From NCBI GenBank assembly GCA_051294905.1, contig CM119373.1, positions 3,040,001 through 3,104,000 of the forward strand: DNA of 64,000 nt. Direction: 5' to 3'. Each line of letters starts with the position of its first letter. The stretch's first letter is position 1. Origin of the DNA: Botryllus schlosseri (Eukaryota). Both the position numbers and the translations under genes were made by a program. The notes beneath the pieces were generated by a model. The model was not told the origin of the DNA and ran no database searches. It saw only the letters and a list, made by a program, of their open reading frames with translations. Below are positions 1-64,000 of this stretch, piece by piece.

Positions 1-3000
1 CTGCTTCAGAGACCTACCAATGATATTGCAGTAATACAGTTACTTCCACAAAAGAGTATGTATTCGACTTACTTACCACAAATCTAACGCACAAAACAAT
101 TTACTTTACTAACGAGAAGCACCGAGCCTCACATCAAAACAACTAGAAAGTGGAACTATATTAAAAAACGTCGCTAACCTTTGTGCACCAGCTGTAAATC
201 ACACAAGCAACATGTTTCAAGATTCTGGTTATTGAAAAACGTTAAAGTGTTTCTCCTGCACCAAGTCGTTATGTTGACGAAAGCGTATATTGTAATACCA
301 TGATCGATTTGCATTCGTTGGTCACAAACTGTCACTACTCAAAATAATTATTTTTCACTCAAACACAAAAGCATACTTGTCGCCAATCGTTTTCATCAAG
401 CACGAGTTCAAGAAGCTTACTTACTACGACATGAATTGTTATTTTTATGTTGTGTAAATAGGTAATAATTTATTTTAGTAACACTACATCAACATCATCG
501 AGTTGTGCGAATAGATTTACATGTGGTTTCAATCGAAGTACACAGCACGGTCTAATGTAGATTCATATCTATTGTACAGCAACTCGGTAATCGAAATGCA
601 TTAACATTTAAACAACGATCTTGGTTCGTCACGCGAAAAATATCTTTACTGTCGCAACACTCTGATACTCTGCACAAGATGTGTAAATCGTTTTCACACT
701 CATAATAATACACTAACGGGATACCGATGTCAAGCAACAACGTTTAACAACATCACCGACACTGAACATACGATACCTACCCAAGTAAAAATATCATTTT
801 CACCAGGAGGTCAGTCGTTACTTGTGTACAATTACCATTTTCCCTTGGGAGTTTAGCGTTACCCGAGTAACAAAACCATTTTCACTTGGAAATATATGTT
901 TTCCCTCAACAACAAACGTTTTTCACTTGGAAATATATTTTTTCCCTGGGTAACAAACCCCTTTTCACTTGGAAATATATTTTTGCCCTGGATAACAAAC
1001 CTTTTTCACTTGGAGATATATTTTTTCTCTTGGTAACAAACCTTTTTCACTTGAAATATATTTTTTCCCCGATCAACAAACCATTTCACTGAGCAACAAA
1101 CCCTTTTCTCCCCAGGCAACAATCCCTTTTCGTTTGGAAAACTATCATTTACCTGAGCACCAATACCATTTCACTTGGAAATCTATCTTCTCCCTAGGTA
1201 ATAATACCATTTTCGTTTTGAAAACTGACACACACACCGGACAATTTGATATTTTTTGTATATTGTTACAACAGACAGTGACAAAATATACACCAACAAC
1301 GACTCCGAAACATTTGTGTAATCAAATATTCACTTGCTCTGATGCATCCCATCAAAATCATTGGTTACTCACATACAATAACATTGTGCTGTTGTACATC
1401 GACATGTATGTTTTCGGAATTGGCGAATAAAGGGGTTTCTGATATGTCCGTGATGTCCGGGTTCGTGCTTTGGATTTTCCAGAGTCAAAATGTCTGAATA
1501 AAACACCTCCTGGACGATGGTTGGTATGTGGATAACGGTGTTCGGAAAACGGTTGGAATTATGTCACCCATCGCGATAACAACTCCAGGTCGAGTTTTCC
1601 TCCCGCATGTTTACTATATTGTGTCTTTATTGGTCAATGTATGTATCGACATTCAGTTTGAAATCGGAAACCCTGATAAAGTACGTAACCGGATCCGGAT
1701 ATCAACTGTGAATCGATAAACCAATGAACAATATTCAAAGTAAACATGTTACACCATGTGTTTCCACGAAAAAATACCATCCAGACATACGTCGCGCTTG
1801 TTTGCCCACACCAGTATACGCGCAAATGGAGGTGTGTGACATTGCATGCAATGTGTTGGTATACAAACATCGATCCACAGACATTATCATAGCCGGTAGT
1901 TTTGATGTAGATCGAATGTCACCCGATAACAATACCAATAAGCCACATTGCAATGACTCTGAGTTAATCTGAAGCATGACATACAGACACACAAACATGG
2001 AACCGTAACATGGGTATTCGCACGACTACCTTTGACAGGGAAAGTGAACTGTACAGTACATACCAATATTGTGATCACAGTCAAATATGCCAACCATGCA
2101 CAATCATATACCCAGGTTTATGTTGGATATGTACGAAACCGATAAATCGATACATTTCTTTTCCTTGAACATCAATAATACAATCACCATTCAAATGCAT
2201 CGCTCGAATGTGAGGTTCGTCTGGTGTAAAATCCATATCAAATAACACCAAAGTGTGCCTTCCGTGTTTTATCATTTCCACCGACGCTTCTTGTCTGTGT
2301 CGTAACAGTATGGTGCTGGGACTTGAAAAACGACAGATTGTGAAACGGATTGACATGACCAACTGAATCGATGTGAATAACCTCGCGGTGATGACAGTGT
2401 CAAAATGCTACCGATATGACGAGACCAACCCGATCTCTTGTAGCGATGACCGTTTCGAAATGTCACCGGACGAAATGGACCCTTACGATGATGTGTTTTA
2501 TGATTGTGTGTGAAATCGCGAGGTAGTGTTCTATTGTGGTGTACGATTGCAATCTTCACAGAAACATACCTTATTGGATCACAGTATCAGTCTGAGATTT
2601 GCACGATATTTATCTGGAGTCGTTATGTGGGAGTAGCGACATCGATGCATCGTGACTGAAAAACTGATCGCAATCATTTCGAGCACCGTACTTCGATAGT
2701 TCACATTGGTCAAACGCTGTAGCAGAAAACTTCGGTGTCGACAACACGATGGATATCGATCGATGCATCCAATTGGTCTGGGTGGTCTGTCTGCAGATAG
2801 GGTCATGACTATCTTGTAATGTTACAACGCGATAAAACCATCGACTAAATCAGTGAACGGTGTCGAAATATCGATGTAATAGTACGGACTCAGAGTCATT
2901 GCAATGTGGCTTATTGGTATTGTTATCGGGTGACATTCGATCTACATCAAAACTACCGGCTATGATAATGTCTGTGGATCGATGTTTGTATACAAACACA

Positions 3001-4851
3001 TTGCATGCAATGTCACACACCTCCATTTGCGCGTATACTGGTGTGGGCAAACAAGCGCGACGTATGTCTGGATGGTATTTTTTCGTGGAAACACATGGTG
3101 TAACATGTTTACTTTGAATATTGTTCATTGGTTTATCGATTCACAGTTGATATCCGGATCTGGTTACGTACTTTATCAGGGTTTCCGATTTCAAACTGAA
3201 TGTCGAGACATACATTGACCAATAAAGACACAATATAGTAAACATGCGGGAGGAAAACTCGACCTGGAGTTGTTATCGCGATGGGTGACATAATTCCAAC
3301 CGTTTTCCGAACACCGTTATCCACATACCAACCATCGTCCAGGAGGTGTTTTATTCAGACATTTTGACTCTGGAAAATCCAAAGCACGAACCCGGACATC
3401 ACGGACATATCAGAAACCCCTTTATTCGCCAATTCCGAAAACATACATGTCGATGTACAACAGCACAATGTTATTGTATGTGAGTAACCAATGATTTTGA
3501 TGGGATGCATCAGAGCAAGTGAATATTTGATTACACAAATGTTTCGGAGTCGTTGTTGGTGTATATTTTGTCACTGTCTGTTGTAACAATATACAAAAAA
3601 TATCAAATTGTCCGGTGTGTGTGTCAGTTTTCAAAACGAAAATGGTATTATTACCTAGGGAGAAGATAGATTTCCAAGTGAAATGGTATTGGTGCTCAGG
3701 TAAATGATAGTTTTCCAAACGAAAAGGGATTGTTGCCTGGGGAGAAAAGGGTTTGTTGCTCAGTGAAATGGTTTGTTGATCGGGGAAAAAATATATTTCA
3801 AGTGAAAAAGGTTTGTTACCAAGAGAAAAAATATATCTCCAAGTGAAAAAGGTTTGTTATCCAGGGCAAAAATATATTTCCAAGTGAAAAGGGGTTTGTT
3901 ACCCAGGGAAAAAATATATTTCCAAGTGAAAAACGTTTGTTGTTGAGGGAAAACATATATTTCCAAGTGAAAATGGTTTTGTTACTCGGGTAACGCTAAA
4001 CTCCCAAGGGAAAATGGTAATTGTACACAAGTAACGACTGACCTCCTGGTGAAAATGATATTTTTACTTGGGTAGGTATCGTATGTTCAGTGTCGGTGAT
4101 GTTGTTAAACGTTGTTGCTTGACATCGGTATCCCGTTAGTGTATTATTATGAGTGTGAAAACGATTTACACATCTTGTGCAGAGTATCAGAGTGTTGCGA
4201 CAGTAAAGATATTTTTCGCGTGACGAACCAAGATCGTTGTTTAAATGTTAATGCATTTCGATTACCGAGTTGCTGTACAATAGAGATGAATCTACATTAG
4301 ACCGTGCTGTGTACTTCGATTGAAACCACATGTAAATCTATTCGCACAACTCGATGATGTTGATGTAGTGTTACTAAAATAAATTATTACCTATTTACAC
4401 AACATAAAAATAACAATTCATGTCGTAGTAAGTAAGCTTCTTGAACTCGTGCTTGATGAAAACGATTGGCGACAAGTATGCTTTTGTGTTTGAGTGAAAA
4501 ATAATTATTTTGAGTAGTGACAGTTTGTGACCAACGAATGCAAATCGATCATGGTATTACAATATACGCTTTCGTCAACATAACGACTTGGTGCAGGAGA
4601 AACACTTTAACGTTTTTCAATAACCAGAATCTTGAAACATGTTGCTTGTGTGATTTACAGCTGGTGCACAAAGGTTAGCGACGTTTTTTAATATAGTTCC
4701 ACTTTCTAGTTGTTTTGATGTGAGGCTCGGTGCTTCTCGTTAGTAAAGTAAATTGTTTTGTGCGTTAGATTTGTGGTAAGTAAGTCGAATACATACTCTT
4801 TTGTGGAAGTAACTGTATTACTGCAATATCATTGGTAGGTCTCTGAAGCAG
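1..4851. repeat. Giant inverted repeat (palindrome 1): arms 1-1964 and 2888-4851, 923-bp unique spacer 1965-2887; left arm truncated by the window edge
   Basis: Base 1 (ctgcttcagagacctacc) is the reverse complement of the sequence ending at 4851, and paired coordinates sum to 4852 throughout. Mirror ORFs are identical (886..1092+/3760..3966-, 1134..1430+/3422..3718-). Pairing ends at ...caatgactctgagt (1964) / actcagagtcattg (2888). About 4 substitutions seen. Confidence 0.97.
875..1215 (+). repeat. ~42-bp minisatellite in the palindrome 1 arm (mirror at ~3637-3977)
   Basis: Repeated ttttcacttggaaatatattttt...aacaaacc. Confidence 0.9.
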
Positions 4852-7800
4852 TCACCGTGGTTTTAATTTTGAAAGATGTCGCGATGTCGGTATAATGTTT
4901 TCTAAAAGTCAAACTCGGACGGATATCATGGCTATGTCGGACTTACGATAAACATTATACTTATACAACTTTGTTACATGAACTATGATATTTCTGTAAG
5001 TGCTATAGTCGTGTGTTGGATTATTTGAATATTTAGATACGTAACCATTCTTATGAAAAAGTTCTTGTGACATCAGAACAGTTTGTAGAGTCAAACCAAC
5101 CATTCAGTTTCGTAGTGTGAGGATATCGAGTAAAGTCGATTACTTTGTGTGATGTAAATATCCTTCGTACTTTTGTAAGAGTTGTGAGGATGATCATTCG
5201 TATCCTACGAAGTAGCTAGTTGATACTACAAAATATTGAATGATCGCTAACACACTGAGTTCATAACCCAAGATAGTGAAAATTGTGTACTCTTAGACTA
5301 ACATAATTCGTATCCAGCAAAACGATAGACACCAAAGGTTCGATGGAGTTTAAATCTAGATTGTATTAAGCGAAGTGATGAGTATCTCCAGTAATAAAGT
5401 CGAAACGACCAAAACAAATTTTCTGTGTCTTGTAAATAACTATTTGGTATGATATTACTTGAGTGTGTGACAATTCGTATCCGTCGAGGTTGAATGTTTA
5501 GCCATATCGAAATGAATCCAGATCACATGAAGTATACATTAATCACAATAGAATCGACGAGAATGTTAACCACGTAGAGTGTGTTTGTTTAAAAGTTATC
5601 TCCAATACGGTTACTTCGATCGGTATTAATTCCATGTCATACAAAAACATGTAACCTTTGTACAGTTTCGTAGTACGGGAATATCGAGTGAAGTTGATCA
5701 TTTTTGTGTGACGAAAATATCTTGTATTGATATTGGACACTGGTTTCGTTACCCAAGTGAGTGAAAATTGTTCTTGGCTGGACAGATATGATTAGTATTT
5801 AGAAAAAACGACTCACACCGATTAAGCGACGCTGTTTCCTATCCAATGACTGAGTGAAATTTCTCAGGGGTTTGATTTACCGAGTTAATTGTCGGCGATT
5901 CAATCACATACAAGTATATGGTCTTTTAGTGACTGATTATTGTGACGACATTTACTTTGACGAATGGCAATGGAAAAATGTCCAATTTCTCTGATCGTTT
6001 GCGTTGCACAAATATTTCTAGTATGTAATCAGTGAACGTCATGTAAATTGACAACGACTCTCAGTAGTTTGGTTAGATGATGGAGGTTCAAATCGATATC
6101 GCTACTACGAACAGCAATACAAACACATTTTTGTAGATTTCAGTGCAGCGCACATTTCGATTTTATTAATGCTGAGAGGTTTCTGTATTACTCAAGTATA
6201 GTTGAATAGGTGGTGCCTGGCAAACATATTCCAATTAACTTTTGTAATGATCAAAGTGAGTGTGAAATGATGCGAACGGATTAAGCATTAATCAAATGGT
6301 GGTATGTCAATTCACCTAGTGCGATATCTTGACACCAGGTAATGCGCGAAAGTGTTTCAATTCTCACCGACAATAAAGTATTGCACCGGTTATTGTTCAA
6401 CAAAGGAAATTGTTGTTTCATCTTTAGTCTTGTTTACTGCAGACAATTACATTTGTAAAATATTTCCTGATATCCACAATACTCTGCGTGGTTTGTACCA
6501 AGGCTGAATAATTTTCCAATCGAGAACATTTTAGACACACATAGTTTACAACTCAATATGTTAATAACAATGGTACTGAAAAGTTTGTTGCTGTCACAAT
6601 AATCTTTACCACAACGCCAGGTCTAATTAACGCAAATAATTTAATAGTCAAGTCATGATCAACTATTACATATGTCAAATCAATGTCTCAATCCTTATGT
6701 TTACATCATGATAATTTTCAATATAACACCTGCGTTCGATTGTAAGAAATGAATTCTCAACATGTTGGGCAGACATTCAAATCTCGCATACTCAAACATA
6801 TTATGTTAATCTCAAGTCGCGGGCACCGAGAAGTAATTACTTTTATCTTACAAAATATACCGCATAGTAATTTCTTTGTCTTACAGAATAGTAACGACTT
6901 TTCAAGTTGAATAAAAAAGACATGTAGGGATATGAATACAACCAGGCTTGTTATGGATTTTAGGTTTTAGTGCTTGTATGGATTCGTGTATGTTTGGCTG
7001 TTTTTCATATTGATACTGTTGAGTTGGTCGGTTAACGGATTTACTTGACAATGTTTTCGTGGTTGATTCTTTGAATATGGTAAGATGGTCAGATGTCGAG
7101 TCGTAATACTATTTCCGTTAACTCAATTACAACAAAACATAACCAGCATTCAAATAATCCGTAAGCTACAAGTGGATTTAAAACTTGATGCTGTTTTGTG
7201 GTTAACTCAAGTCAGTGGTCATATTTGTGTTGATTTCAGGAATGATCATGACGAGTTGGTCGGGTAAATTAGTGGTAGTAACTATGACCGTACAGAGTTG
7301 CTGACATTCAAACATCTTTTACGCTGTAATATACGTATTTTATTGTGATAAATTATTTCTCAGTTATTGTTCAGACATTCAAATCTCGTATACTCAAAAT
7401 ATAATATGTTTATGTCAAGTCATTTATGTGTCGATTAGTAAATAGCTTACTTTGTCTTCAGAATAGTAACGACCTTTACAATAGAATAAAAAAGACCGAT
7501 CATATGAATACAACCAGAATGAATTAATTCAAATTTGTGAGTTGCAGTGGTATAATCAAGTAAGTGAAAACTAGATTTTGAACACTTGTTAATGTTGTAA
7601 ATAATTCTTTTGAGTATGGTAAGATGTTTAAAATGTCGCTTTGACAAACGAAAAGTCGGATCGCGAATAGAGTTGCAATGTTCCATTACTTGTTTCGAAT
7701 CAATGTGCGTATAATATCAATATGGGACTGTGGGAAAGTTGATAGCCATGTTTGTCAATCCTATTTCAATTCACACTACACCAAAGTCAAAATATTTCGT

Positions 7801-7899
7801 TTCGGATTATCTCAATTTACCTAGTACATCCCGCGAATGGATTCCGACCCATGCTATAACTAGATCGCTATGTCTGATGCATTATCCCGTCAGCGACGT

Positions 7900-9060
7900 A
7901 GGGCTTTACAATTATTTCACACCTTTTCGAATAAGCGTCAACTTCGCAAAGGATTAGGGTGGGATCAGAAATAAGTGAGAATTTGTCGGTATTCGAATCA
8001 TCGTCTGTGACGGCTCTGTTATCCGTTACTTATTAAATTTTACCAGTGAAATCCAGTTCCTGTGACATACCGATTATTAAAATATTACATTGTGGCGATT
8101 GGAATGTATGTAACAACAAGTTGGTGAGGGCTGGCTATGTCTTAGGTGTTATCTCGTGAGTGATCGTGGGATTTGCAACCTATTTCGCACCTTTTTGAAG
8201 GGTTAGTTTGTGAACGCGGCTATTGTTGGTATCGCCGTCTACGCGGGTTCTGTGGTAAACTAATTACCAAAATATTACATTGTCAACGATCGGCATGTAT
8301 GTAACAGCGAGTCGCGAGCGATGGTTATGTCTTAGGTATTATCTTGTGAGTGATCGCTGGATTTTACCAATATTTCACACCTTTTTGAAGTGTTAGTTTG
8401 CGAACGCGACTATTGTTGATATTCGAATCACCGTCTACGCCGGCTCTGGGGTAATCTAATTACTCAAACATTACCATGAGAGTAATTCCTAGACTTAGCA
8501 AACTATTTCACACCTTTTTTGCTGAAAGTACGACATGCCGCCCGCAGTCTATAAACGAAAGTACGAATCATCGCCGCGTCCATAAGAATAACGATATATC
8601 ATTGTCGTACTCGCCGTAATTTGGAATATACACATTAACTAAGGACCAATCACATGACTATTTACTTGATACATATTCAACACCGGGTGAGAGATGCCTA
8701 TACCCGAAAGTACGATATGCCGACGCACCCATAAGAACACATTGCGAATCACCACCACTGCCTATACGCGAAATACGACACGCGAAAGTACGACGTGCGA
8801 CAGATGCCTATACCTAAAAGTACGATGTGCCAACACGAGTTTTCAATACGATATGCGACAGATGCCTATACCTAAAAGTACGATGTGCCAACACGAGTTT
8901 TCAATACGATATGCGACAGATGCCTATACCTGAAAGTACGATGTGCGAGCGCACCCATAAGAACGCATTACGATGTGCGACCGAGAGGGGGGGGTCCAAA
9001 AGTACGATGTGCCACCACGAGTTTTCCATACGATGTGCGACCGCACCCATAAGAGCCCCA
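7900..9060 (+). repeat. Degenerate tandem arrays (~175-bp unit, then aaagtacgatgtgc-based units including near-exact 59-bp copies)
   Basis: tatttcacaccttttt recurs at ~7913, 8181, 8371 and 8504; gcgacagatgcctatacctaaaagtacgatgtgc occurs three times across 8796-8946. Confidence 0.85.
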
Positions 9061-9253
9061 TAGCCCGTCACGAGCGATCTATACTACTACTCAGGAGTCA
9101 ACATCTTAGTAGTACTTGTTATGACTAGTCGACGTCTCACCCATATTACACTTTTTATTCACAATTGAATGAAGGCGAAAAGCGCTATTTACAAAAGGCA
9201 TTAAAAAAGTACGTTGCAGATCAGTGTTGCATTGTCAGGCACAAGTTGCAGAT

Positions 9254-11026
9254 TACAGGCTTTTGATTAGAGTTGACTTCCTGCTGTCTCCAACTGTCTT
9301 CCTATGCTGTTCCACAGCTTGAAGCAGACTGTCTCTTTGTTGTTCATTGTCAGTCAAGATTGCAGCATAGTCTGTGCTTAGCTTTACACCTCGTTATGCG
9401 GCATCATTAACGACTTTGACAGAACTGATGTAGGAGCTCATTCTGGTGTAGGAATCTGATAAGTGCCAAACATCAACCGGTTGAGCTAGCCACGCCCCAG
9501 AGCATTCAAAAACATCAAATATGTACCACGAGTGTGGCCCAATAAAATCAGACAAAGTAGTGTCCTTGTTGATGTGTACAGTTGCATTCAACGAGGGCGG
9601 GCCTCTCCTGAAACTTGAAGTTCGCTCTACCTGCAGGAGCGTCTTTGCCATATTTTCTCGGGTTTCATTGCTTTCACTCGGCGAAAACCAGGCATGTACA
9701 GCGGTTTCCTCCACGATATACCAGTCATGCTTCAAAAGCTTCTGTGAAGCAGCTTTGGAAACTTGTTCATCATGTTCCTTGTAACTCAACATGTCCTGGA
9801 TGAATTTCAAGTCATTACCGGCTGCATCACGACCGATGCTGGAAGCAACCCAGGCGGGGATATAAAAGAGAACTAAAAATAAATTGAAGCGATACAGCAG
9901 TTCCACTTCTTCAGATTTGTAATGTAACTGATCAGCCCACATGAACATCTTCTGAGCGTACAGAATTGTGCCCATCCACCTTGCATGGTGTGTTGCACCA
10001 GGTTTGTGATGATGTATATCTCCATCTGCACCGAGAAGAGCAAGAGCATTAGTCACACATTGTTTGTAGTCATCCCGTGTGAAGAAATCTTTTCTGGCGA
10101 GTAGTAGCTTGAAGTTCTCAACCGTCATTGCTGCTCATTCTTTAAAGCATATAGGAATAGTCAGACTCTTGAATTGCTGTTTTCTGTCAAGACTGCTCCA
10201 GCTCTTCTTAAGGTGGGCAAACCATGTGTTCTCTGGTCCGGTTGTTGCTTTTCCAAATAAACATTTCCAGACGTCTTTGACTACTAGCTCATACACATGG
10301 TGCTGACACGCATGGTAAAAAACCTTCTTTCCTAGAAGGTCCTCAAGGACCTTCGCTGCACCCTTCTTCCAGCCGCTGTTGCTTGCTGTGGTGCCATAAA
10401 CCAAAGCTGTTACAGCATCCTGTACAGCAACTTAAGTCGTGTGAAACGCTTTCAACAGTTTGATCTGCAATGGCTGCTGTTTTCTTTTTGAGGTCTTTAG
10501 CCAGAATTTTGTCTCTTCCCAACATTATCGACTGGCGAGATTGCCGTTGATCTTCATAAAATGCAATGTCTTCAAGCTTTCTTTCATGTGATAGATAAAT
10601 GTCATTTTCTATTGTTGTTATGGCATCTCTACTTCCAATATCCCACAGCTTGTCCAAATTATCAGGGAATTTTCCCCTCTTACCCTTGGGATCACTTTCC
10701 TGTTTCGGATTCTTCTTCAGATCACGCCATCTTTCGTGCAGGTTTTGAAGTGATCGCACCACATGTGATTTCTGCATTGTCGCAATTCTCGCCGTTTTCC
10801 ACACTGTCATTACATCATCCACCACCACAGTACATAGTTCATGAGTAGGGGTTGACTGAGGACAATGCTATTTCAGATGCAGCAAGTAACTCATTACTTC
10901 TCGTATAGTAGATAATCTCGAGCCACAGATGTAATCGCAAGTATATCCGACCAAGTACTGCTCAGATTTGGATCTTGTTCTTCGCTGCGGCATGTGTGCA
11001 ATCTTTCGCCGTTTTGCCGCTGCCAT
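9254..11026 (-). pseudogene. Decayed DDE DNA transposase (tentatively hATm-like)
   Basis: Consecutive minus-strand ORF fragments (10343..10828, 10135..10404, 9394..10128) with motifs YGTTASNSG, ACQHHVYEL (CxxH), PGATHHARWM and VVNDAA*RGVKL. The presumed catalytic Glu codon is a TAA stop; frameshifts and a probable internal deletion. The subfamily assignment is from memory and needs a database check. Confidence 0.75.
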
Positions 11027-11595: not shown

Positions 11596-11985
11596 CTAAA
11601 TTTTTTCTAGTCCGTGTGATGCATTAATCAGCGATTTCAGATCTCTGGGTTTCATGCCCGGAACTGCCTCGGCATAAAAGTTATTTAACTTCTGAGTAAT
11701 CGGAACCTCAAAACGGTCCAACAAAACTTTTTTAAGCAAATCGTAGCAATTAGGATCATGTGGGCTAGGAATACTCGCGTCAATAGCGGCTAAGTGTGCG
11801 TCATTCAAGTTCCTCAGCAAGATTAGATATTTAGCTTTCTGCGACCGCACCTTTTCGCCTTCAAGTTGACATTCTAACGTCATGAAATACCGTGCCGGAG
11901 CATTCTCGTTAAAAGGCCGATTGATAGTAATCTCGCGAGAAGTGAATCTATCCAGAGGTTCACTGTCACTACTTTCCACTTCCAT
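11596..11985 (-). pseudogene. Ty3/Gypsy-like gag N-terminal remnant
   Basis: 129-aa ORF with PFNENAPARYFMTLECQL...KAKYLILL...YDLLKKVLLDRF, a pattern typical of retrotransposon gag N-termini; no pol or LTR seen. Confidence 0.55.
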
Positions 11986-21833: not shown

Positions 21834-21953
21834 GGCTGCAATTTTTGCCATAATATCCTTCGGTGCAGTTACACGAATAGTACGGAGTAGTGGCCTTACT
21901 AAGACATGTTCCGTTATGTTGACAGACATGCGGATGGTGTTCGCAGTAATTTT
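21834..21953 (-). CDS. EGF-like domain exon (intact, six Cys), phase 1-1
   Basis: 120 bp, AG acceptor and GTAAGT donor; NYCEHHPHVCQHNGTCLSKATTPYYSCNCTEGYYGKNCS. Phase joins the first FReD exon. Confidence 0.9.
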
Positions 21954-24198: not shown

Positions 24199-24256
24199 AC
24201 TCCAAGCCTAATACTCGAATCATAGATTCGGCTGTAACTAGAAGCAATACACTTAC

Positions 24257-48327: not shown

Positions 48328-48410
48328 ACTGGGTTGAGCGAGCGGTTAAGGCATTGGACTTAAGTTTCAATGAACAGGTGTTCACGTGGGTTCGAACCCC
48401 ACACCCAGCT
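48328..48410 (+). tRNA. tRNA-Leu(TAA)-like gene, probably a pseudogene
   Basis: ACTGGGT/ACCCAGC acceptor stem (1:72 mismatch), GAGCGGTTAAGGC D-loop region with damaged D-stem, TTGGA-CTTAAGT-TTCAA anticodon arm, long variable arm TGAACA-GG-TGTTCA, GTGGG-TTCGAAC-CCCAC T arm; 83 nt. Confidence 0.85.
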
Positions 48411-48809
48411 TTACACGACGTTTTTTGTAAAATGAATACTAATATTATTGAAAAAATAAAAAATAAAAAGAGCAAAAAATTACATTTTATCCCGGAACGC
48501 AACAAGAAAAATCGTATGAATTTGTAAACTACTTATTCATGACATAATAATAATTCTACTTGTACACTTTTTCACACTTTATAACACTTTAAGTAGTACT
48601 TAACAGTTTCAGTTTTAAATAAAATACGGAATATAAACTAATCGAAAAATTCGGTTACCAATTTCGCGTAGGCTATGCATACAAATGAGGAAAGTTACAT
48701 CAACGCGTGTTAACTAGTTGTATCGAGTTATCGAATGATTTTTTTCTTTACATCAAAATAACTAGAGTGTGTAACTACATTAAAAACGTATCTAAATGAG
48801 CTCCAGGTC

Positions 48810-49960: not shown

Positions 49961-50246
49961 ACATGTTTATCGTAAGTCCTACACAGTCATGATATCCGGC
50001 CGAGTTTGGCTTTTAGAAAACATTATACCGACAACGCGACATCTTACAAAATTGAAACCGCGGTGACTGCTTGAGAGACCTACCAGTGATATTGCGGTAA
50101 TCTAGTTACTTCCACAAAATAGTATGTATTCAACTTACTTTCCACAAATCTAACGCGCAAAACAATTTACTTTGCTAACGAAAAGTGCTGAGTCATCATA
50201 TCATTATCCACGCAACAATACACCTAAAACATACTATCGTACAAAA

Positions 50247-50657
50247 TGTTACTGTAGGCATTTCATGTTAATCTTGGGGGGTTCAATAATTTAGGAGCCA
50301 TACTTGTATTCGCTAGATGGCGTATGCTTGACGATACTTCCTGGTCTGGTCTAAGGGAATATTCTGGATATAGCTGTGATAGGGTACAGTTTGTCAATAG
50401 TAATTGGCCCACCGGACGTTCCCCCACTGTATTTACCGATCTTGTTGGGACAATATCTTATTCGTGCTACTACTGTGTCGTATTATAATTTGGATATAAG
50501 GAAATTCGATCAATTGGAACTTCAAGCAATATACTTTTCTACCGTACTTCAAGATCGCGTATATTTACATCGGGAAACTTATAGGACTTTGCGGCGCTGT
50601 AAGTTCAAGGGAAGACAGCTTACACAGAATCACATAGGCAGTTCAGCGACCGCAACA
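50247..50657 (+). repeat. 5' LTR
   Basis: tgttactgtagg...gaccgcaaca; no difference seen from 56849-57259. Confidence 0.96.
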
Positions 50658-50883
50658 GTAAATACAGCTAAAGGTCCGGTCGTGGAGTATTGGAATATAC
50701 AGTGCAACGCCTGGAAGCGGAACTAAACAAAGGACAGGACGGCTATCGGTACATAAGGAAAGGACAATTCCATATTGTGTGGATTGGTGCCGGTAATAGG
50801 ACTTGCTTCATTTATACTAATATTGGAGAAAAGGACACACTTCTGTTGAAGAAAACACTAAGTTGGTGTACTCTGGTTTCATA

Positions 50884-53800: not shown

Positions 53801-56790
53801 ACAATATGACGGGAATCTTGTTGAGATTCAGAAAGAACGAAGTAGCCATCATGGCGGACATTGAAAAAATGTTTTTTCAATTTTATGTCAATGAAAAGGA
53901 TCGTGATATGCTGAGATTTCTGTGGTGGAAAGATGGAGATATTTCAAGGGAACTTTTAGAGTATCGTATGAAGGTATTTCCCTTTGGAAGTGTCTCATCG
54001 CCAGGCGCGGCCATGTATGGCATGAAGTTGGCCGCTGATGATGGAGAGCAAGAGTTCGGCTCCAAGGCTGCAGAATTTGTTCGATCCAATTTCTACGTGG
54101 ATGATGGATTAACCTCGGTAGAAAATGTGGATGAAGCTGTTGAATTGGTGAAAAACAGCGTGGGTATATGTGGAAAGGCTGGATTGAGACTGCATAAATT
54201 TGTGTCGAACAAAATGCAAGTATTGGAATCGATTGATAAATCGGAAAGGGCGAAGGGATTGCAGGACATTGACTTCGATACTATGTCATCGTTGACAGAG
54301 AGGTCTTTGGGAATTTTATGGAATCCATCATTGGATGTGTTTCGGTTCCACAGGGAATTGGTGGATAAACCAGTAACAAGACGAACAGTATTGAGTGTCG
54401 TATCGTCTATCTTTGATCCGATGGGTTTTCTAGCCCCTGTTCTGCTGGTTGGAAAGGTATTATTGCAAGAATTGTGCAAAATGAAACTTGATTGGGACAC
54501 TGCGCTACCAGAAAGTTATGCTCGTAGATGGGAAGATTGGTTAAATGATTTGAACAATTTGGATAAAATTCAAATCAAAAGATGTGTGAAACCTGATGAA
54601 TTCGGCACCGTTGAGGGAGTGGAGCTTCACCATTTTTCCGACGCATGTGAGTATGGATACGGGCAATGCTCATATCTCCGCTTGGTTGATGATAAAGGGA
54701 AAGTGCATTGCACTCTCATTATGTCAAAATCGAGAGTTGCACCCTTGAAGCAAGTGTCAATTCCTAGGATGGAACTGACTGCGGCTGTGGTATCAGCCAA
54801 GATGAGCAAATTTCTCAACACAGAGTTGCAGTATGAAAATTTGAATGAGTATTTTTGGACTGACAGCAATGTTGTTTTGGGATATATAAATAACGTAGCG
54901 AGGCGATTTCATGTTTTCGTGGCAAACAGAGTTCAACTGATACATGATTTGACAGACTCTTCTGCATGGATGCATGTGGCAGGACATGATAATCCAAGTG
55001 ACATTGCAAGCAGAGGTACGTCGCTGGAAAAACTTTTATCACTTTCGTTATGGTGGGATGGACCGCAATTCTTGTGGAAAGAGGGAAGATTTGAAATACC
55101 AAAGGACGCTCATCCATCAGGCGAAGCTGTGGATGACTTGGTAGATGTGGAAGTCAGAAAGGCTGTGTCACTCAGTACAACTTCCAATGAAAATTCGGGA
55201 TCTAAATCTTGGAATACAAACTTGAAACAGTTTTCGTCGTGGTTCAAGGCAAAACGGGCTGTTGCAAACTGCCTGCAATTCAAAGACAGATTGAAGGGTT
55301 TGCCCATAAACAGTTCTCTCACTATTGAAAGGTTATCAGTGGCAGAAAGGATCATCTTGAAAGACTTACAGAGTGAATTCTTTCCTGATGACATGGAACG
55401 TCTTGATCCTGCATCAAAGTCGAAAAGTTCTTCTGTAAAGAAAGGCAGTCCTTTGTACAAACTAGATCCATTTGTGGACAGAGATGGCTTGATAAGAGTT
55501 GGCGGAAGAATCCGTAATAGCTCTTTGTCTTCTGAAGTCAAGAATCCAATTTTGCTGCCTCGGAAATCTCACGTAACGGACTTGATTATTCGCCATTTTC
55601 ATGGAAAGGTCAATCATATGGGACGTGGAATCACGCACAATGAGATACGTCAACATGGATATTGGATTATAGGTGGTGTGAGTGCTGTCTCTCAGCACAT
55701 CCACCAATGCATAACTTGTCGGAAATTACGGAAACCATTATCGGCACAAAAGATGTGCGAATTACCAGAGTCGAGAATGGCTGAGCAAGGTCCATTCACA
55801 TTTTGCTCGTGCGATTTCTTCGGACCATTTGAAATCAAAGAAAGGCGATCCGTATTGAAAAGGTACGGAGTTATTTTCTCTTGTTTGTCATCCAGAGCTA
55901 TACACTTGGAGACAACAAACTCTATGGACTTGGATTCATTTATTAATGCACTGAGAAGATTTCTTGCAAGGAGAGGACCGATAAAATCACTGTTGAGTGA
56001 TTGCGGAAGCAACATCATTGGGGGAAAGAATGCTTTCCAAAAGGCGATTGGTGAGATGAATCAGAAAAAGGTCAGAGATTATCTATTGTCTGAAAATTGT
56101 GATCTGATAGAATTCAACTTTCACGTGCCAAAAGCTAGTCATATGAATGGGAATGTCGAACGCCAAATTCTTACGGTGCGTCGTGTTTTGGAACCATTGC
56201 TTTGTCAAATAGGTTCACATTTGGATGATGAATCACTCAGAACCTTTTTCGCAGAAGTGGAAAATGTGGTAAATTCAAGACCACTAACTGTTATCAATTT
56301 GGGTGATGTCAATGCGCCAGAACCATTGACACCAAATCATCTGTTAACGATGAAACCAAAAATTTTGTTGTCACCTCCAGGGGAATTTGGCAAGCCAGAT
56401 CTCTATGCAAGAAGGCGCTGGAGAAGAACACAATACGCTGTGAATCAATTTTGGTTCAGATGGAGAAGGGAGTTTTTACCTGGCATGCAACAACGCACTA
56501 AATGGAGCAAAGTTAGTCGAAATGTTCGAGTGGGAGATATTGTTATCGTTCATGATGATGACCTTCCGCGAAACTCTTGGAAATTGGGAATCGTACACTC
56601 GGTTTCGAACTCGACAGATGGGCTGGTGCGAAAGGCTAAGATACGCATCGCCGACCGTACTATTGATCAGTACGGAAGAAGAATCAACGATGTGCAGTTT
56701 TTGGAGCGACCTATCCACAAATTGGTCGTGCTTCTCGCTGCAGAGGAAGTTACCGAGGATTCCACCGACGAGGAGCCACTAATGGACTAA
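50884..56790 (+). CDS. BEL/Pao Gag-Pol polyprotein (gag, three Cys-His knuckles, aspartic protease, RT, RNase H, integrase)
   Basis: The 1975-aa ORF track entry starts at TTG 50863; the first ATG is at 50884. Motifs: FDGNILEYLAWETSF (gag), CYFC..H...C / CFGC..H...C / CRIC..H...H, ALDGQC (protease), ADIEKMF and FYVDDG (RT), HHFSDAC and SKSRVAPLK (Pao RNase H), H..H..CITC and SDCGSN (integrase), PLTPNHLL and FWFRWRREFL. Domain order PR-RT-RH-IN is typical of BEL/Pao. Confidence 0.96.
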   Translation: MTPGRNKKKSGKASGGGRNGANSRNSTLVGEDNVDSDPNRIMAEDYKHGHTVISNRRTRGTSAYIENMKQEFDFHVKEVLRQCKCLNDLLESRDGREYVSKAYLDMRKKFALLQDFWIDLEPRLRPEESEAISCSFKDIQDRVEETGYNAKDYLDEYNGETKAKFSEPTARRNRLVVLEDSNSPDRETALLLEQNQRDYEQKMKDLSAQNQRDIQRLMDRGRKSKPSSVLDNTENVMDRAPNNDGAHGIYHVNANLDQVLKELAVSNAMLARSCGLPEIKVGVFDGNILEYLAWETSFDALIQSKTCNVHELLNYLESHLSGEPKEMIKGLLLLQNRDAYERARKRLKTRYGNDNVIGNAFLNRLSSWPKINVKDGIGLRKFADFLDQIAAAEPKIPALGVLNYAIESNKIIGKLPQFLRGKWRDEVYKWQSKYGEASYPPLKEVAGFVDVCAEKMNIPELDDLDSPNNKGKIDSPEVVSYKDSYKGKFKVTSFSTECQDDTSATRTKCYFCDELHHIDDCEGFGKLSHMEKREFIMKRGLCFGCGSSQDHMAKFCTARITCRICKRRHMTSLHIETDEVDSKCTQVCSKKGQKGGKQNTMIVPVYVSTAANPSKKVKCYCALDGQCNRTFMVDDLKESLGLESVNTKLQMSTLYKSGAVINSSRITGIIVSSIDETSSVTIPQVYTRAEIPVEISQIPKPQVAREWAHLRSIADKIMPYDPSMKVGILIGADVPNALRPREIVAGGDSDPYGQLSMFGWGIVGNVCKDLTGESPSVVSHHTIVRDAQMEEGFETSEVVGDGNTAFVYMSKAKEVMCPQNINHLLEMDFIEHRNLEASLSVEDKRFMDILSKGVARREDGHYEFPLPLKYDNVRVPNNRALAAKRAEQVKRRLSKNQNLHEEYKDQMNLTIEKYAEKVPEDILDLKNGRINYIPHSPVFHNKKGSLRIVNDMSAKYGGLCINDVLLSGPNLMDNMTGILLRFRKNEVAIMADIEKMFFQFYVNEKDRDMLRFLWWKDGDISRELLEYRMKVFPFGSVSSPGAAMYGMKLAADDGEQEFGSKAAEFVRSNFYVDDGLTSVENVDEAVELVKNSVGICGKAGLRLHKFVSNKMQVLESIDKSERAKGLQDIDFDTMSSLTERSLGILWNPSLDVFRFHRELVDKPVTRRTVLSVVSSIFDPMGFLAPVLLVGKVLLQELCKMKLDWDTALPESYARRWEDWLNDLNNLDKIQIKRCVKPDEFGTVEGVELHHFSDACEYGYGQCSYLRLVDDKGKVHCTLIMSKSRVAPLKQVSIPRMELTAAVVSAKMSKFLNTELQYENLNEYFWTDSNVVLGYINNVARRFHVFVANRVQLIHDLTDSSAWMHVAGHDNPSDIASRGTSLEKLLSLSLWWDGPQFLWKEGRFEIPKDAHPSGEAVDDLVDVEVRKAVSLSTTSNENSGSKSWNTNLKQFSSWFKAKRAVANCLQFKDRLKGLPINSSLTIERLSVAERIILKDLQSEFFPDDMERLDPASKSKSSSVKKGSPLYKLDPFVDRDGLIRVGGRIRNSSLSSEVKNPILLPRKSHVTDLIIRHFHGKVNHMGRGITHNEIRQHGYWIIGGVSAVSQHIHQCITCRKLRKPLSAQKMCELPESRMAEQGPFTFCSCDFFGPFEIKERRSVLKRYGVIFSCLSSRAIHLETTNSMDLDSFINALRRFLARRGPIKSLLSDCGSNIIGGKNAFQKAIGEMNQKKVRDYLLSENCDLIEFNFHVPKASHMNGNVERQILTVRRVLEPLLCQIGSHLDDESLRTFFAEVENVVNSRPLTVINLGDVNAPEPLTPNHLLTMKPKILLSPPGEFGKPDLYARRRWRRTQYAVNQFWFRWRREFLPGMQQRTKWSKVSRNVRVGDIVIVHDDDLPRNSWKLGIVHSVSNSTDGLVRKAKIRIADRTIDQYGRRINDVQFLERPIHKLVVLLAAEEVTEDSTDEEPLMD

Positions 56791-56848
56791 TGTTTTACTT
56801 AATTTGCAAAAAAGTTCTTTGTCATTTTATAACTTTTTTGGGGGGGTA

Positions 56849-57259
56849 TGTTACTGTAGGCATTTCATGTTAATCTTGGGGGGTTCAATAATTTAGGAGC
56901 CATACTTGTATTCGCTAGATGGCGTATGCTTGACGATACTTCCTGGTCTGGTCTAAGGGAATATTCTGGATATAGCTGTGATAGGGTACAGTTTGTCAAT
57001 AGTAATTGGCCCACCGGACGTTCCCCCACTGTATTTACCGATCTTGTTGGGACAATATCTTATTCGTGCTACTACTGTGTCGTATTATAATTTGGATATA
57101 AGGAAATTCGATCAATTGGAACTTCAAGCAATATACTTTTCTACCGTACTTCAAGATCGCGTATATTTACATCGGGAAACTTATAGGACTTTGCGGCGCT
57201 GTAAGTTCAAGGGAAGACAGCTTACACAGAATCACATAGGCAGTTCAGCGACCGCAACA
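56849..57259 (+). repeat. 3' LTR
   Basis: Direct repeat of 50247-50657, preceded by ttttttgggggggta. Confidence 0.96.
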
Positions 57260-60200
57260 CAAAATGGTCGCTAACCTCTTTGTGCACCAGCTGTAAATCT
57301 CACAAGCAACAAGTTTCAAGATTCCAGTTATTGAAAAAATGTTAAAGTGTTTCTCCTGCGCCAAGTCGTTATGTTTACGAAAGCGTATATTGTAATATCA
57401 TGATCGATTTGCATTCGTTGCTCACAAACTGTCACTACTCTAGATAATTATTTTTCACTCAAACACAACAGCATACTTGTCGCCATTCGTTTTCATCAAG
57501 CACGAGTTCAATAAACTTACTTACTACGACATGAATTGGTATTTTTATGTTGTGTAAATAGGTAATAATTAATTTTAGTAACACTATACCAACATCATCG
57601 AGTTGTGCGAATAGATTTACATGTGGTGTTATGGTTTTAATCGAAGTGCACTGCACGATCTAATGTAGAGTCATCTCTATTGTATAGCAACTCGGTAATC
57701 GAAATGCATGCATTAACATTTAAACAGCGATCGTGTTTCATCACGCGAAAAATATGTTCACTACTGCGATACTCTGCACAGGGCATGCAAATCCTTCTCA
57801 CACTCGTAATAGTATACCAACGGCTACCGGCGACAACGTTTAACAATACCAACGACACTAAACATACGATACCTACCCAATCTGCAAATTGTTTCGATTT
57901 ATTCTGTCTGTTTCAATTTAAGATAAGGAAGCCCATTTCACTCAATGTATCGATGCCTACGGTACTCTACAAAATTTTCTGATTAATTCTCCCTATGCTT
58001 ATTTATCACAAGAAAGATGATTTGATACCTAAAGTACGAAATACTTTTTCGCTTGAGCTAAGCCGCAGCGCCTGGAGTGGAATTTTACGGGGTATGTGGG
58101 CTCATTTCGTAGGGCTCTATGCCATAGGAGCATACTTTACGCTCCAATTCGATTCCCACACATTCCATATAATTACTAACAGAACCATTGAGTACCAGCC
58201 TTGACATTTTCCGTAGTACTAGATGGCATGTATACAATTTCACGACATCCGACATTACGACGAAGACTATCAAAATATCGAAAGAAGCCCTCTATTCTTT
58301 TCTGAAATAATCAAGGTTTTATCAGGACTTCCCTTCATATAAACTCCAGCAGAATCACTAATAACCTCCCAAGTGTACTCTATTTACTCTAATTTGATAC
58401 TCGTGTACCAAATCCCTATTTTCCGCAAGTATGATAGAGGCTATCGCTCGATACTCAACGATTCGTAATTTTGCTGGAATACAAGTACAATTAGTTTAAA
58501 GTAGTTTGAGGTTACGTTTGTATCACCTCGACAAGTGCTATTATCAAAAAATGCTTTTGCTAAACTCTTACACTTTCACTAAACTTCTACACTGAATCTT
58601 GTAAAGTAGATAGAAAAGGAAAACTATTAACATAAGGTAAGTGAGAAGCACGCAAATTTCGATTGCATACAAATGCCACAAACTGCGCTAACTTCCAGAG
58701 TTGTTAAGTATAGAAGTACTCGTACGTCTTGAGAATACCCAAGTAGGTTTTTTGCCTACATGTACCAAATACTCTCAAGTCCTTATGATATTGGAGTACA
58801 TCAACTTCATGATAGCTACAGTATTAAACAGAAATAGACCTAGAGTACTAACGTTTTTGCGCAGTGAGAGTTCGCAAATTATCGAAGTATTTTTGTTATT
58901 TTTATTGCGATAAGTCATTCTGCAGCGCAAAAATGCGTCGTAGGATATAGATGAAACTAGCACCACTCATCAAGACCGCTGATAACAGTACATTTCAACA
59001 TTTAGTTGCAGTAAATTTCGAGTAAAGTACAAGAAGTGATGATTTCCGAGTGAGTTAAAAAGTAAGTATTGCAGGTATAGTTTACCTGAAAATCGAATAC
59101 TCTGAAATAGAAGTAGATGCAGTGTAAATAGTTAATCACTTGATTAAGTATAGCGCAAGCAGATAAAACCTATACTTGAGTACTACAAAATACACGAGTA
59201 CTTCGCTATCGACTCCCTCCACGTAATAAGTGACTACGGTTTAAGACTGCTTTTACCGATACTCGTCAGTTTCCGTTTTAGATAGAATTCGGAAACCAAA
59301 TAATTTCATAAACATAAGCTAATTAAATGAATTTACTCGAATGTACTATGCCGCGCTGATAAGATTAATTATAATATACTTGTCATGTTAGAGCGATTTT
59401 TCTAGCGTAGAAAATCTTTAAAATGTAGTAAGCAGGCCAATATGAAGATATTCGTTGAGCTGAATAAACATAAAAAATACTCTAGACTACTTTATCGGTA
59501 CTTTACAGTTTCAGTTTTAGATAAAATTTGTCCCTTTCACTCCTCGCTATCTAAACATGTTTAGAATATATTATTTGCGATGATACGAACCCGTAAAGTA
59601 CTCAAGTAGCTTTTCGTTGGATATAGATGAAACTGACACCATTCACCAAGACCACTGGCCCACTGACAAAAAGTACATTTCAACATTTTAGTAACAGTAA
59701 AGTCCTACTAAAGTACAAGAAGTCATGATTTCCGAGTGAGTTAAAAAGTAAGTATTGAAGGTATAGTTTGCTCGAAAACCGAAAAAACTCTGAAATAGAA
59801 GTAGATGCAGTGTAAATAGTCAATCACTTCATTTAGTATAGCGCAAGCAGGGCAAACCTATACTTGAGTACTCCAAAATATACAAGTACTCCCTCCACGT
59901 AAAAAGCGACTAGGGTTTAGACTACTTTATCGGTACTTGACAGTTTTAGATAAAATTTGGTGAGACTTTAAATTTTAAAGTAGTTTGAGCTTACGTTTGT
60001 ATCACCTTGACAAGTATCATTATCAGACATGAAAATGATACTATCACCTAATACAGAAGTTAACACACGTCAATGTGCTTCGGAATTCACGAGAAATTGC
60101 TTACTAAGAGAAGTATATTCTTGTATACACAATAGTGGAGAGAATCTTTAAAATGTAGTAAGCAGGCCGATGGGTATTCATTGAGTTGTATAAACATAAA

Positions 60201-63200
60201 AAACATTCCCGCGCGCGTCTTAGTATTAGGTGGTAGGGTAGGAAGTGTTAGGTTTAGGAGCGCGCGGGAATGTTTTTTATGTTTATACAACTCAATGAAT
60301 ACCCATCGGCCTGCTTACTACATTTTAAAGATTCTCTCCACTATTGTGTATACAAGAATATACTTCTCTTAGTAAGCAATTTCTCGTGAATTCCGAAGCA
60401 CATTGACGTGTGTTAACTTCTGTATTAGGTGATAGTATCATTTTCATGTCTGATAATGATACTTGTCAAGGTGATACAAACGTAAGCTCAAACTACTTTA
60501 AAATTTAAAGTCTCACCAAATTTTATCTAAAACTGTCAAGTACCGATAAAGTAGTCTAAACCCTAGTCGCTTTTTACGTGGAGGGAGTACTTGTATATTT
60601 TGGAGTACTCAAGTATAGGTTTGCCCTGCTTGCGCTATACTAAATGAAGTGATTGACTATTTACACTGCATCTACTTCTATTTCAGAGTTTTTTCGGTTT
60701 TCGAGCAAACTATACCTTCAATACTTACTTTTTAACTCACTCGGAAATCATGACTTCTTGTACTTTAGTAGGACTTTACTGTTACTAAAATGTTGAAATG
60801 TACTTTTTGTCAGTGGGCCAGTGGTCTTGGTGAATGGTGTCAGTTTCATCTATATCCAACGAAAAGCTACTTGAGTACTTTACGGGTTCGTATCATCGCA
60901 AATAATATATTCTAAACATGTTTAGATAGCGAGGAGTGAAAGGGACAAATTTTATCTAAAACTGAAACTGTAAAGTACCGATAAAGTAGTCTAGAGTATT
61001 TTTTATGTTTATTCAGCTCAACGAATATCTTCATATTGGCCTGCTTACTACATTTTAAAGATTTTCTACGCTAGAAAAATCGCTCTAACATGACAAGTAT
61101 ATTATAATTAATCTTATCAGCGCGGCATAGTACATTCGAGTAAATTCATTTAATTAGCTTATGTTTATGAAATTATTTGGTTTCCGAATTCTATCTAAAA
61201 CGGAAACTGACGAGTATCGGTAAAAGCAGTCTTAAACCGTAGTCACTTATTACGTGGAGGGAGTCGATAGCGAAGTACTCGTGTATTTTGTAGTACTCAA
61301 GTATAGGTTTTATCTGCTTGCGCTATACTTAATCAAGTGATTAACTATTTACACTGCATCTACTTCTATTTCAGAGTATTCGGTTTTCAGGTAAACTATA
61401 CCTGCAATACTTACTTTTTAACTCACTCGGAAATCATCACTTCTTGTACTTTACTCGAAATTTACTGCAACTAAATGTTGAAATGTACTGTTATCAGCGG
61501 TCTTGATGAGTGGTGCTAGTTTCATCTATATCCTACGACGCATTTTTGCGCTGCAGAATGACTTATCGCAATAAAAATAACAAAAATACTTCGATAATTT
61601 GCGAACTCTCACTGCGCAAAAACGTTAGTACTCTAGGTCTATTTCTGTTTAATACTGTAGCTATCATGAAGTTGATGTACTCCAATATCATAAGGACTTG
61701 AGAGTATTTGGTACATGTAGGCAAAAAACCTACTTGGGTATTCTCAAGACGTACGAGTACTTCTATACTTAACAACTCTGGAAGTTAGCGCAGTTTGTGG
61801 CATTTGTATGCAATCGAAATTTGCGTGCTTCTCACTTACCTTATGTTAATAGTTTTCCTTTTCTATCTACTTTACAAGATTCAGTGTAGAAGTTTAGTGA
61901 AAGTGTAAGAGTTTAGCAAAAGCATTTTTTGATAATAGCACTTGTCGAGGTGATACAAACGTAACCTCAAACTACTTTAAACTAATTGTACTTGTATTCC
62001 AGCAAAATTACGAATCGTTGAGTATCGAGCGATAGCCTCTATCATACTTGCGGAAAATAGGGATTTGGTACACGAGTATCAAATTAGAGTAAATAGAGTA
62101 CACTTGGGAGGTTATTAGTGATTCTGCTGGAGTTTATATGAAGGGAAGTCCTGATAAAACCTTGATTATTTCAGAAAAGAATAGAGGGCTTCTTTCGATA
62201 TTTTGATAGTCTTCGTCGTAATGTCGGATGTCGTGAAATTGTATACATGCCATCTAGTACTACGGAAAATGTCAAGGCTGGTACTCAATGGTTCTGTTAG
62301 TAATTATATGGAATGTGTGGGAATCGAATTGGAGCGTAAAGTATGCTCCTATGGCATAGAGCCCTACGAAATGAGCCCACATACCCCGTAAAATTCCACT
62401 CCAGGCGCTGCGGCTTAGCTCAAGCGAAAAAGTATTTCGTACTTTAGGTATCAAATCATCTTTCTTGTGATAAATAAGCATAGGGAGAATTAATCAGAAA
62501 ATTTTGTAGAGTACCGTAGGCATCGATACATTGAGTGAAATGGGCTTCCTTATCTTAAATTGAAACAGACAGAATAAATCGAAACAATTTGCAGATTGGG
62601 TAGGTATCGTATGTTTAGTGTCGTTGGTATTGTTAAACGTTGTCGCCGGTAGCCGTTGGTATACTATTACGAGTGTGAGAAGGATTTGCATGCCCTGTGC
62701 AGAGTATCGCAGTAGTGAACATATTTTTCGCGTGATGAAACACGATCGCTGTTTAAATGTTAATGCATGCATTTCGATTACCGAGTTGCTATACAATAGA
62801 GATGACTCTACATTAGATCGTGCAGTGCACTTCGATTAAAACCATAACACCACATGTAAATCTATTCGCACAACTCGATGATGTTGGTATAGTGTTACTA
62901 AAATTAATTATTACCTATTTACACAACATAAAAATACCAATTCATGTCGTAGTAAGTAAGTTTATTGAACTCGTGCTTGATGAAAACGAATGGCGACAAG
63001 TATGCTGTTGTGTTTGAGTGAAAAATAATTATTTAGAGTAGTGACAGTTTGTGAGCAACGAATGCAAATCGATCATGATATTACAATATACGCTTTCGTA
63101 AACATAACGACTTGGCGCAGGAGAAACACTTTAACATTTTTTCAATAACTGGAATCTTGAAACTTGTTGCTTGTGAGATTTACAGCTGGTGCACAAAGAG

Positions 63201-64000
63201 GTTAGCGACCATTTTGTACGATAGTATGTTTTAGGTGTATTGTTGCGTGGATAATGATATGATGACTCAGCACTTTTCGTTAGCAAAGTAAATTGTTTTG
63301 CGCGTTAGATTTGTGGAAAGTAAGTTGAATACATACTATTTTGTGGAAGTAACTAGATTACCGCAATATCACTGGTAGGTCTCTCAAGCAGTCACCGCGG
63401 TTTCAATTTTGTAAGATGTCGCGTTGTCGGTATAATGTTTTCTAAAAGTCAAACTCGGCCGGATATCATGACTGTGTAGGACTTACGATAAACATGTATT
63501 GATATTAAAGTTGACTATGTATAGGTACGCGCTACGGAAAAACAGATTTAGCCAAAAGCCTGTATAGAACTGCGTTGGTTTTGAAAGTGTTACATCATGA
63601 AATGCCTGACGAAATTTGGTATGGTGCATTGTTATTATGTCCTACAACTGGGTATCAACGTTCAAGGTGAGAATTTAAGGTTTAGCATGCTAATTCTGTT
63701 ATTAAAATTGACTATGTATGGGTATATGCTATGTTCACGAAAAACAGATATGTGTAAAAGTCGGTATTCGACTGCGATAGTTTCAAAGGTGTTCCATCAT
63801 TAGATGTGTGATGAAATTTAGCATGGTTCATTGCCATAATGTCCTACAACTACGTATCAAGTTTAGAGTTGGGATTCAATGTTAAGCATGGTAATTCCGT
63901 TATTAAAGTTAGCTATGTATGAGTACGTGCTATACGCCCCCCGCAAAACAGATATACGCAAAAAGTCGATGTAGAGCCGCGTTCGTTTTAAAGTTGTTCC

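Follow-up and report, generated by a model that had tools for sequence, protein, structure and literature searches.

How did two giant palindromes that otherwise appear unrelated in sequence come to share one block of about 0.9 kb? This question arises from a 64,000-nucleotide stretch of the Botryllus schlosseri genome (assembly GCA_051294905.1, contig CM119373.1, positions 3,040,001 to 3,104,000 of the forward strand), hereafter called the window. It contains one palindrome at its left edge (P1) and another that runs to its right edge (P2); the block that they share is called the module. Our best reading is that the two palindromes represent two subfamilies of palindromic dependants of Maverick/Polinton elements and that P2 is a recombinant. 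P1 is likely a helper-dependent Maverick satellite, and P2 likely belongs to another subfamily, as a recombinant that took 0.9 kb of a P1-type arm. We give this reading a probability of roughly 60%.

Architecture of the two palindromes

Comparison of the window with itself and an analysis of its repeats resolved the following features of P1.

1-1964: left arm, the part within the window; its start is predicted by symmetry about 4.2 kb before position 1
1965-2887: unique loop, 923 bp (self-comparison)
2081-2356, reverse strand: 91-amino-acid (aa) open reading frame in the loop, with full-length relatives and no family assigned
2888-9091: right arm, 6,204 bp (mirror checked for 2888-4851)
3626-3992: 41-bp tandem array of the inner arm (mirror 860-1226; repeat analysis)
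4068-4955, forward strand: module (mirror 1-784), with its best-conserved core at 4325-4574
8060-9054: subterminal repeats, a 190-bp pair and then a 58-bp array (repeat analysis)
9083-9091, forward strand: (ACT)3 at the right end, a motif of the Maverick/Polinton (AGT)2//(ACT)2 type; the exact last base could be 9088

The arms 1-1964 and 2888-4851 differ by 4 substitutions over 1,964 sites. The right end lies within the window, which gives a right arm of 6,204 bp whose mirror can be verified for 2888-4851 only; by symmetry, P1 is predicted to measure 13,331 bp (~13.3 kb) in full, with two arms of that length.

P2 comprises the features below.

45710-45715, forward strand: AGTAGT, candidate left end, one of three matches to the motif in 44500-48400
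48327-48795: outer part of the left side, a tRNA-Leu(UAA)-like sequence and then short pieces related to the inner arm and the module
48805-49958: 202-bp tandem array (mirror 63500-64000, running off the window)
49963-50246, reverse strand: module in the left arm, outer piece (self-comparison)
50247-57259, forward strand: BEL/Pao long terminal repeat (LTR) retrotransposon, in the module of one P2 arm only (LTRs at 50247-50657 and 56849-57259)
57265-57880, reverse strand: module in the left arm, inner piece, which joins the second repeat at 57880/57881
57881-60216: inner arm (the second repeat, Q), with degenerate internal duplications (self-comparison and read contigs)
60217-60259: loop, 43 nt, G-rich, flanked by arm ends bearing GCGCGC and partly covered by an independent contig
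60260-62595: inner arm, right copy (self-comparison)
62596-63495, forward strand: module in the right arm, holding the empty BEL site

Its arms (49457-50246 plus 57265-60216 on the left, 60260-64000 on the right) differ by 4 substitutions and one single-base indel in ~3,740 bp. The first-pass annotation, made from the sequence of the window, had given the mirror of the module in the left arm as two pieces. The gap of ~7 kb between them is the BEL/Pao element. Its LTRs are identical and have TG...CA ends, the target duplication measures 5 bp, and an open frame of 1,989 aa contains Peptidase_A17, DUF1759, DUF5641, reverse transcriptase, and integrase domains. The corresponding empty site lies within the module of the right arm.

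Several other claims of that annotation held up on realignment. Two giant palindromes do share a module of ~0.9 kb, with the mirrors it had given; the module has the same orientation relative to the centre in both, with sharp borders at both of the motifs it had quoted; and the module is diverged between the palindromes, whereas the arms within each are nearly identical. The copies at 4068-4955 and 62596-63495 are 85.6% identical (E = 0.0); their 869 aligned bases contain 81 substitutions, and of the 12 indel runs only 2 have a length that is a multiple of three. An nhmmer search found no further copy in the window, and an exact 24-mer of the module occurred in none of the viral and none of the metagenome contigs scanned. 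In six comparisons between the palindromes of their inner arms, loops, and outer arms, described as apparently unrelated, no match rose convincingly above shuffled sequence; one was marginal (62 bp, 29.7 bits versus a null maximum of 28.1).

Short relics of the module and of the P2 inner arm do occur farther out on the left side of P2, at 48576-48795. Two pieces (48576-48631 and 48697-48742) match the P2 inner arm above 15 shuffles, and a third (48750-48795) matches the P1 module at 83%. A loose contig end leaving the P2 inner arm at 59890 also matches 48413-48435 uniquely when a gap is allowed (0 of 100 shuffles); ungapped searches of the window with three loose-end motifs gave 0 matches each. 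Because kin of Q lie on both sides of the 202-bp array and the module, the array and the module sit inside a Q-type arm.

Two further observations concern P2. The tRNA-Leu(UAA)-like sequence of its Q-related outer left side (48327-48411, forward strand) was found by ARAGORN and scores 32.9 bits in Rfam; at 48328-48410 it is the only Rfam match in the whole window, with none in the module or the arms. Its 3' part recurs in short form ~200 bp upstream, and it could be the head of a short interspersed nuclear element or captured cargo. Within the inner arm, 58705-59212 weakly matches its own reverse complement (nhmmer E ~1e-6), possibly as a relic of an older fold-back axis.

The P1 loop encodes a conserved protein

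The first-pass annotation had reported no protein-coding signal. This is wrong for the P1 loop: relatives that span the full length of the 91-aa frame share 82-84% and 62% identity with it and are co-linear from the start codon. P1 is therefore not noncoding. The protein matched no Pfam family, and no relative of its alignment was present among 266 metagenome and 65 viral contig pattern matches; a tblastn search found no relic of the gene in P2. A further candidate relative, P0005, was not counted (E = 4e-4, repetitive sequence). The AlphaFold2 model, built from an alignment of three sequences, was unusable (predicted local distance difference test score, 39), and atlas matches scored 0.80-0.81 with low recognition, leaving a START-like fold as a lead only.

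Both arms of P2 probably come from one template

To set the window against independent reads, four of 20 matching runs (X1, X5, X18, and X19, from four studies with four organism labels) were aligned to 57266-60262, yielding 33,723, 179, 84, and 125 aligned contigs, respectively. All 24 runs listed consist of contigs; the loose ends described below come from 24 of 680 rows and the contig pieces from 32 of 34,177.

Among the 40 variant sites listed (257 more lie beyond them), at 14 at least 95% of the X1 depth is against the letter in the window. Twelve of these rare alleles occur in both arms of P2 as mirror images; the remaining two are differences between the arms. At the two arm-private sites in the aligned stretch, the right arm carries the letter of 98-99.8% of the X1 depth; these are therefore new mutations in the left arm. 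The mirrored rare alleles, together with the mirrored module junction, indicate that one template gave rise to both P2 arms after those changes had arisen, and only the five small changes and the BEL element are later than this common template. The earlier proposal that the arms are homogenised, and that the elements are giant, modular, and present in multiple copies, thus finds support in the mirrored alleles and the read contigs. As to how the arms were made alike, we lean somewhat toward regeneration during replication over gene conversion in place; conversion is only a little less probable and explains the mirrored alleles equally well, and the data cannot separate the two.

A likely affiliation with Maverick/Polinton elements

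Moving outward along the right arm of P1, the 190-bp pair and the 58-bp array are followed by (ACT)3. Maverick/Polinton elements end in (AGT)2//(ACT)2 or (AG)3//(CT)3; in vertebrates, the first is the commonest end, total lengths are 12.7 to 24.6 kb, and terminal inverted repeats (TIRs) measure 46 to 1,447 bp (PMC8097293). P1 carries such a motif at its right end, the one inside the window, and its predicted 13.3 kb falls within the length range quoted from that source. The genes of an autonomous element are another matter: no polymerase (pPolB), integrase, ATPase, protease, or capsid protein gene was found in the in-window parts of P1 and P2, where no stop-to-stop frame exceeds 144 aa apart from that of the BEL element. 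None of the 20 frames scanned (of 80 listed) reached the Pfam cut-off, and one match below it, at E = 0.021, was treated as chance. Lacking a core gene in its in-window part, P1 can therefore be at most a dependant of a Maverick and not an autonomous one.

The first-pass annotation had instead proposed a foldback family of the FB or Galileo type. In its classical form, this alternative makes P2, and possibly both palindromes, modular foldback transposons (FB/Tetris/Tm1, related to Mutator) that are moved by a cut-and-paste transposase, with the module captured from the P1 family. The part of the proposal that describes giant, modular, multicopy palindromes stands. Long composite inverted arms with tandem-repeat domains are indeed present; the unique domains and the 41-bp and 202-bp arrays resemble the domains of Tetris and Tm1 as set out in the accessible text of PMC4079207 and PMC3169594, and for P2 no Maverick end is established. 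The family assignment fares less well, since the end motif of P1 is of the Maverick type and P1 carries a gene. No transposase lies in either spacer, the loops being 923 bp (with the 91-aa frame only) and 43 nt. The arms, 6.2 kb in P1 and at least 3.7 kb in P2, compare with up to 1,735 bp in Tetris (PMC4079207), and their identity of 99.8-99.9% compares with a mean of 93% in Tm1 (PMC3169594), going by the portions available of those papers. Cut-and-paste alone, moreover, does not explain the mirrored rare alleles. We therefore regard classical foldback transposition as unlikely.

Several observations nevertheless weigh against a Maverick affiliation and a recombinant P2. The window holds three other runs of (AGT)3 or longer; (ACT)3 can arise by chance, and the motif alone is weak. 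The terminal 30-mer of P1 has no match on the left side of P2 at up to 10 mismatches, and the candidate P2 end at 45710, which would make that element ~15.0 kb long, is one of three occurrences of a common hexamer in 44500-48400; a separate dispersed repeat ends ~40 bp before it. The arms are also much longer than the TIRs expected of a Maverick (about 0.05 to 1.5 kb): those of P1, 6.2 kb by symmetry with 1.96 kb directly mirrored, lie far above the 46 to 1,447 bp given for vertebrates in the accessible part of PMC8097293, and those of P2 reach at least 3.7 kb. Scans of viral and metagenome contigs came back empty, and neither an autonomous Maverick nor any sequence tying the palindromes to one was found (the 18-mer at the P1 end, for example, had 0 matches in viral contigs). 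Finally, the read data covered the inner border of the module only, and none of the contig pieces listed (32 of 34,177) bridges 57880/57881; the junction may be private to this copy or shared by a sub-lineage.

The module is likely a recombined piece of a P1-type arm

The read contigs allowed us to ask what normally lies next to the module. Loose ends behind 57880 read as P1 inner arm in all four runs (39, 2, 1, and 2 contigs in X1, X5, X18, and X19, respectively). The P2 inner arm has other company: one X5 contig carries it with a different sequence before 57881, and an X18 contig of 941 nt aligns to 57881-58756, differing at 5 positions, and stops matching exactly at 57881, with 65 letters left over that we infer to be on the module side. 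Summed depth, which is no copy number, was in every run higher over the module than over the adjoining 600 bp of inner arm (176k-486k versus 32k-64k in X1, 123-416 versus 29-82 in X5, 47-93 versus 5 in X18, and 112-195 versus 14-35 in X19). At 12 listed module sites, the letter with most of the X1 depth is not that of P2; P1 carries this majority letter at 10 of them and a gap at 2. On the basis of these sites, the P1 module is near the common type and that of P2 is a diverged copy. Since the contigs continue inward as P1-type sequence and at least one run shows the P2 inner arm beside something else, the module appears to be a fragment of a P1-type arm brought into the second repeat. It is likely an ordinary piece of such an arm that recombined into P2. 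New here is that one arm type harbours a defined 0.9-kb block of another, the inner junction being supported by reads.

P2 could instead have arisen where it now lies, through break-induced fold-back or an inverted duplication in a cluster of repeat debris that happened to include a piece of P1-type arm, and would then be no mobile unit. In favour of this, its left boundary is not evident and its left side is a patchwork of relics, and a single duplication event would also mirror private alleles. However, contigs of each of the four runs filled 30 of 30 bins along the inner arm as far as the loop and into it; three of them (X5, X18, and X19) yielded long inner-arm contigs with 3 to 5 differences in 584 to 876 matched bases; and one independent contig runs into the loop. 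We consider a purely local origin improbable.

We hold an equally low opinion of the idea that the module acts as an autonomous cis element (for example as an origin, or as a signal for packaging or palindrome formation), marks out a single family, and has been reused by otherwise unrelated arms. This was the view of the first-pass annotation; the P1-type inward neighbour of the module in four of four runs and the other neighbour of the P2 inner arm do not support it. The sharp borders and the shared orientation speak for it, as does the high depth over part of the module. So does the core at 4325-4574, which has 11 events in 250 columns compared with 13.0% elsewhere (permutation p = 0.003; width chosen post hoc). 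However, the borders show no terminal inverted repeat, no flanking or target duplication, and no conserved hairpin (z scores for P1 and P2 of -1.6 and +1.9 at the inner border and of -1.2 and +1.4 at the outer border), and the module lies 1.2 kb from the loop in P1 and 2.3 kb in P2, neither at the axis nor at the end. An independent small mobile element of the miniature inverted-repeat transposable element (MITE) or Helitron-like kind was rejected for want of terminal repeats, duplication, and a conserved terminal hairpin. In a weaker form of the cis idea, the conservation of the 250-bp core may favour some function.

An origin of the palindromes in sequencing or assembly error, through missed hairpin adapters or chimeric amplification, is exceedingly improbable despite arms that are 99.8-99.9% alike and a P2 loop of adapter size: they are real because a 7-kb BEL element with a target duplication occupies one arm and the other has the empty site, and further because there are arm-private changes where the other arm holds the population letter and a 923-bp loop with a conserved gene, with loop sequence present in an independent run.

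A proposed route to mosaic palindromes

If P1 and P2 are Maverick dependants, a Maverick in the same genome would supply a protein-primed polymerase and an integrase in trans. Strand-displacement replication from both ends would then yield single strands able to fold back on themselves as long hairpins. If satellites replicating together switched templates, the 0.9-kb block might move into the P2 lineage, after which fold-back copying or hairpin repair would make the arms identical, copying the mosaic arm into both halves. The unmirrored changes, few in number, would postdate integration, as would the BEL element. These steps are modelled on general knowledge of protein-primed strand displacement and on the snapback genomes of adeno-associated virus (AAV), as treated in the accessible part of PMC8235507.

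More tentatively, and in our view rather doubtfully, there might be a whole recombining population of 13- to 16-kb snap-back Maverick satellites that exchange arm blocks by template switching, each mosaic arm being copied into both halves. The 250-bp core would then be a functional cis signal, under selection when subfamilies exchange it, and P2 a recombinant caught in the act and datable by its one-armed retrotransposon.

Were the main reading right, integrating, virus-like Mavericks would spawn snap-back defective genomes, similar to those known from small DNA viruses, that persist as abundant, recombining chromosomal elements. Such elements would give rise to near-perfect palindromes of very large size that do not stem from faulty assembly. 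Together, P1 and P2 offer a direct test of arm homogenisation, in that the mosaic junction and the rare alleles are mirrored and the young retrotransposon is not. The pair also illustrates that a "conserved module" common to two palindromes need not be a family-defining signal and may be a block moved by recombination.

Other features of the window

Just beyond the end of P1, two broken frames (246 and 174 aa) lie on the reverse strand at 9394-10867; the 246-aa frame, which falls in no Pfam family, is 43-63% identical to 15 unnamed relatives, and the pair looks like a decayed DNA transposase. A DUF7041 frame at 11596-11985 (reverse strand; E = 8e-10) is probably a fragment of another retroelement. 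Between the palindromes, a fibrinogen C-terminal exon at 18364-18798 (reverse strand; Pfam E = 5e-20) and an EGF-like exon among degenerate 230- to 240-bp repeats at 21694-24636 probably belong to a host gene.

The remaining features are repeats. A degenerate nested inverted repeat of ~750 bp at 39964-40726, related to 15442-15612, is likely an old MITE-like or foldback element. A 126-bp tandem array of ~8-10 copies at 32226-33581 is A-skewed, and two families of GACTC-rich short repeats occur twice each (12581-12755, 42323-42478, 14432-14617, and 42701-42888). Three CAGTG-type starts, at 45101, 45239, and 46755, have no partner end within 3 kb; we take them to resemble the ends of hAT mini-elements.

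Comparison with known systems

With Maverick/Polinton elements, P1 shares an end of the (AGT)2//(ACT)2 type and a predicted length of 13.3 kb within their size range. Unlike them, P1 and P2 have no polymerase, integrase, ATPase, protease, or capsid frames, and the inverted arms make up ~93% of the element, compared with TIRs of 0.05 to 1.4 kb. No palindromic, nonautonomous Maverick is described in the accessible portions of PMC8097293, PMC3014272, PMC6431247, bioRxiv 10.1101/2023.08.22.554363, and bioRxiv 10.1101/2024.01.15.575659. A literature search across titles and abstract openings likewise found no description of palindromic Maverick satellites; Repbase, Dfam, supplements, and most subscription journals were outside its scope, and cataloguing there is possible. 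The BEL/Pao passenger of P2 has no unusual features among BEL/Pao retrotransposons and is usable as a time marker.

Foldback-type elements include FB, FARE, Galileo, and the TU elements of the sea urchin, and Simmen and Bird reportedly described a foldback element of Ciona. Like Tetris (PMC4079207) and Tm1 (PMC3169594), as far as the accessible text of those reports describes them, P1 and P2 are nonautonomous, have long modular inverted arms with internal tandem arrays, and occur in rearranged forms; unlike them, they have arms that are several times longer and nearly identical, and P1 has a Maverick-type end. The snapback subgenomes of AAV, in the portion available of PMC8235507, are similar in being self-complementary, helper-dependent genomes that keep one end twice, in symmetric or looped form. 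They differ in being nonintegrated particles of a small single-stranded DNA parvovirus, and the likeness is accordingly one of mechanism and not of kinship.

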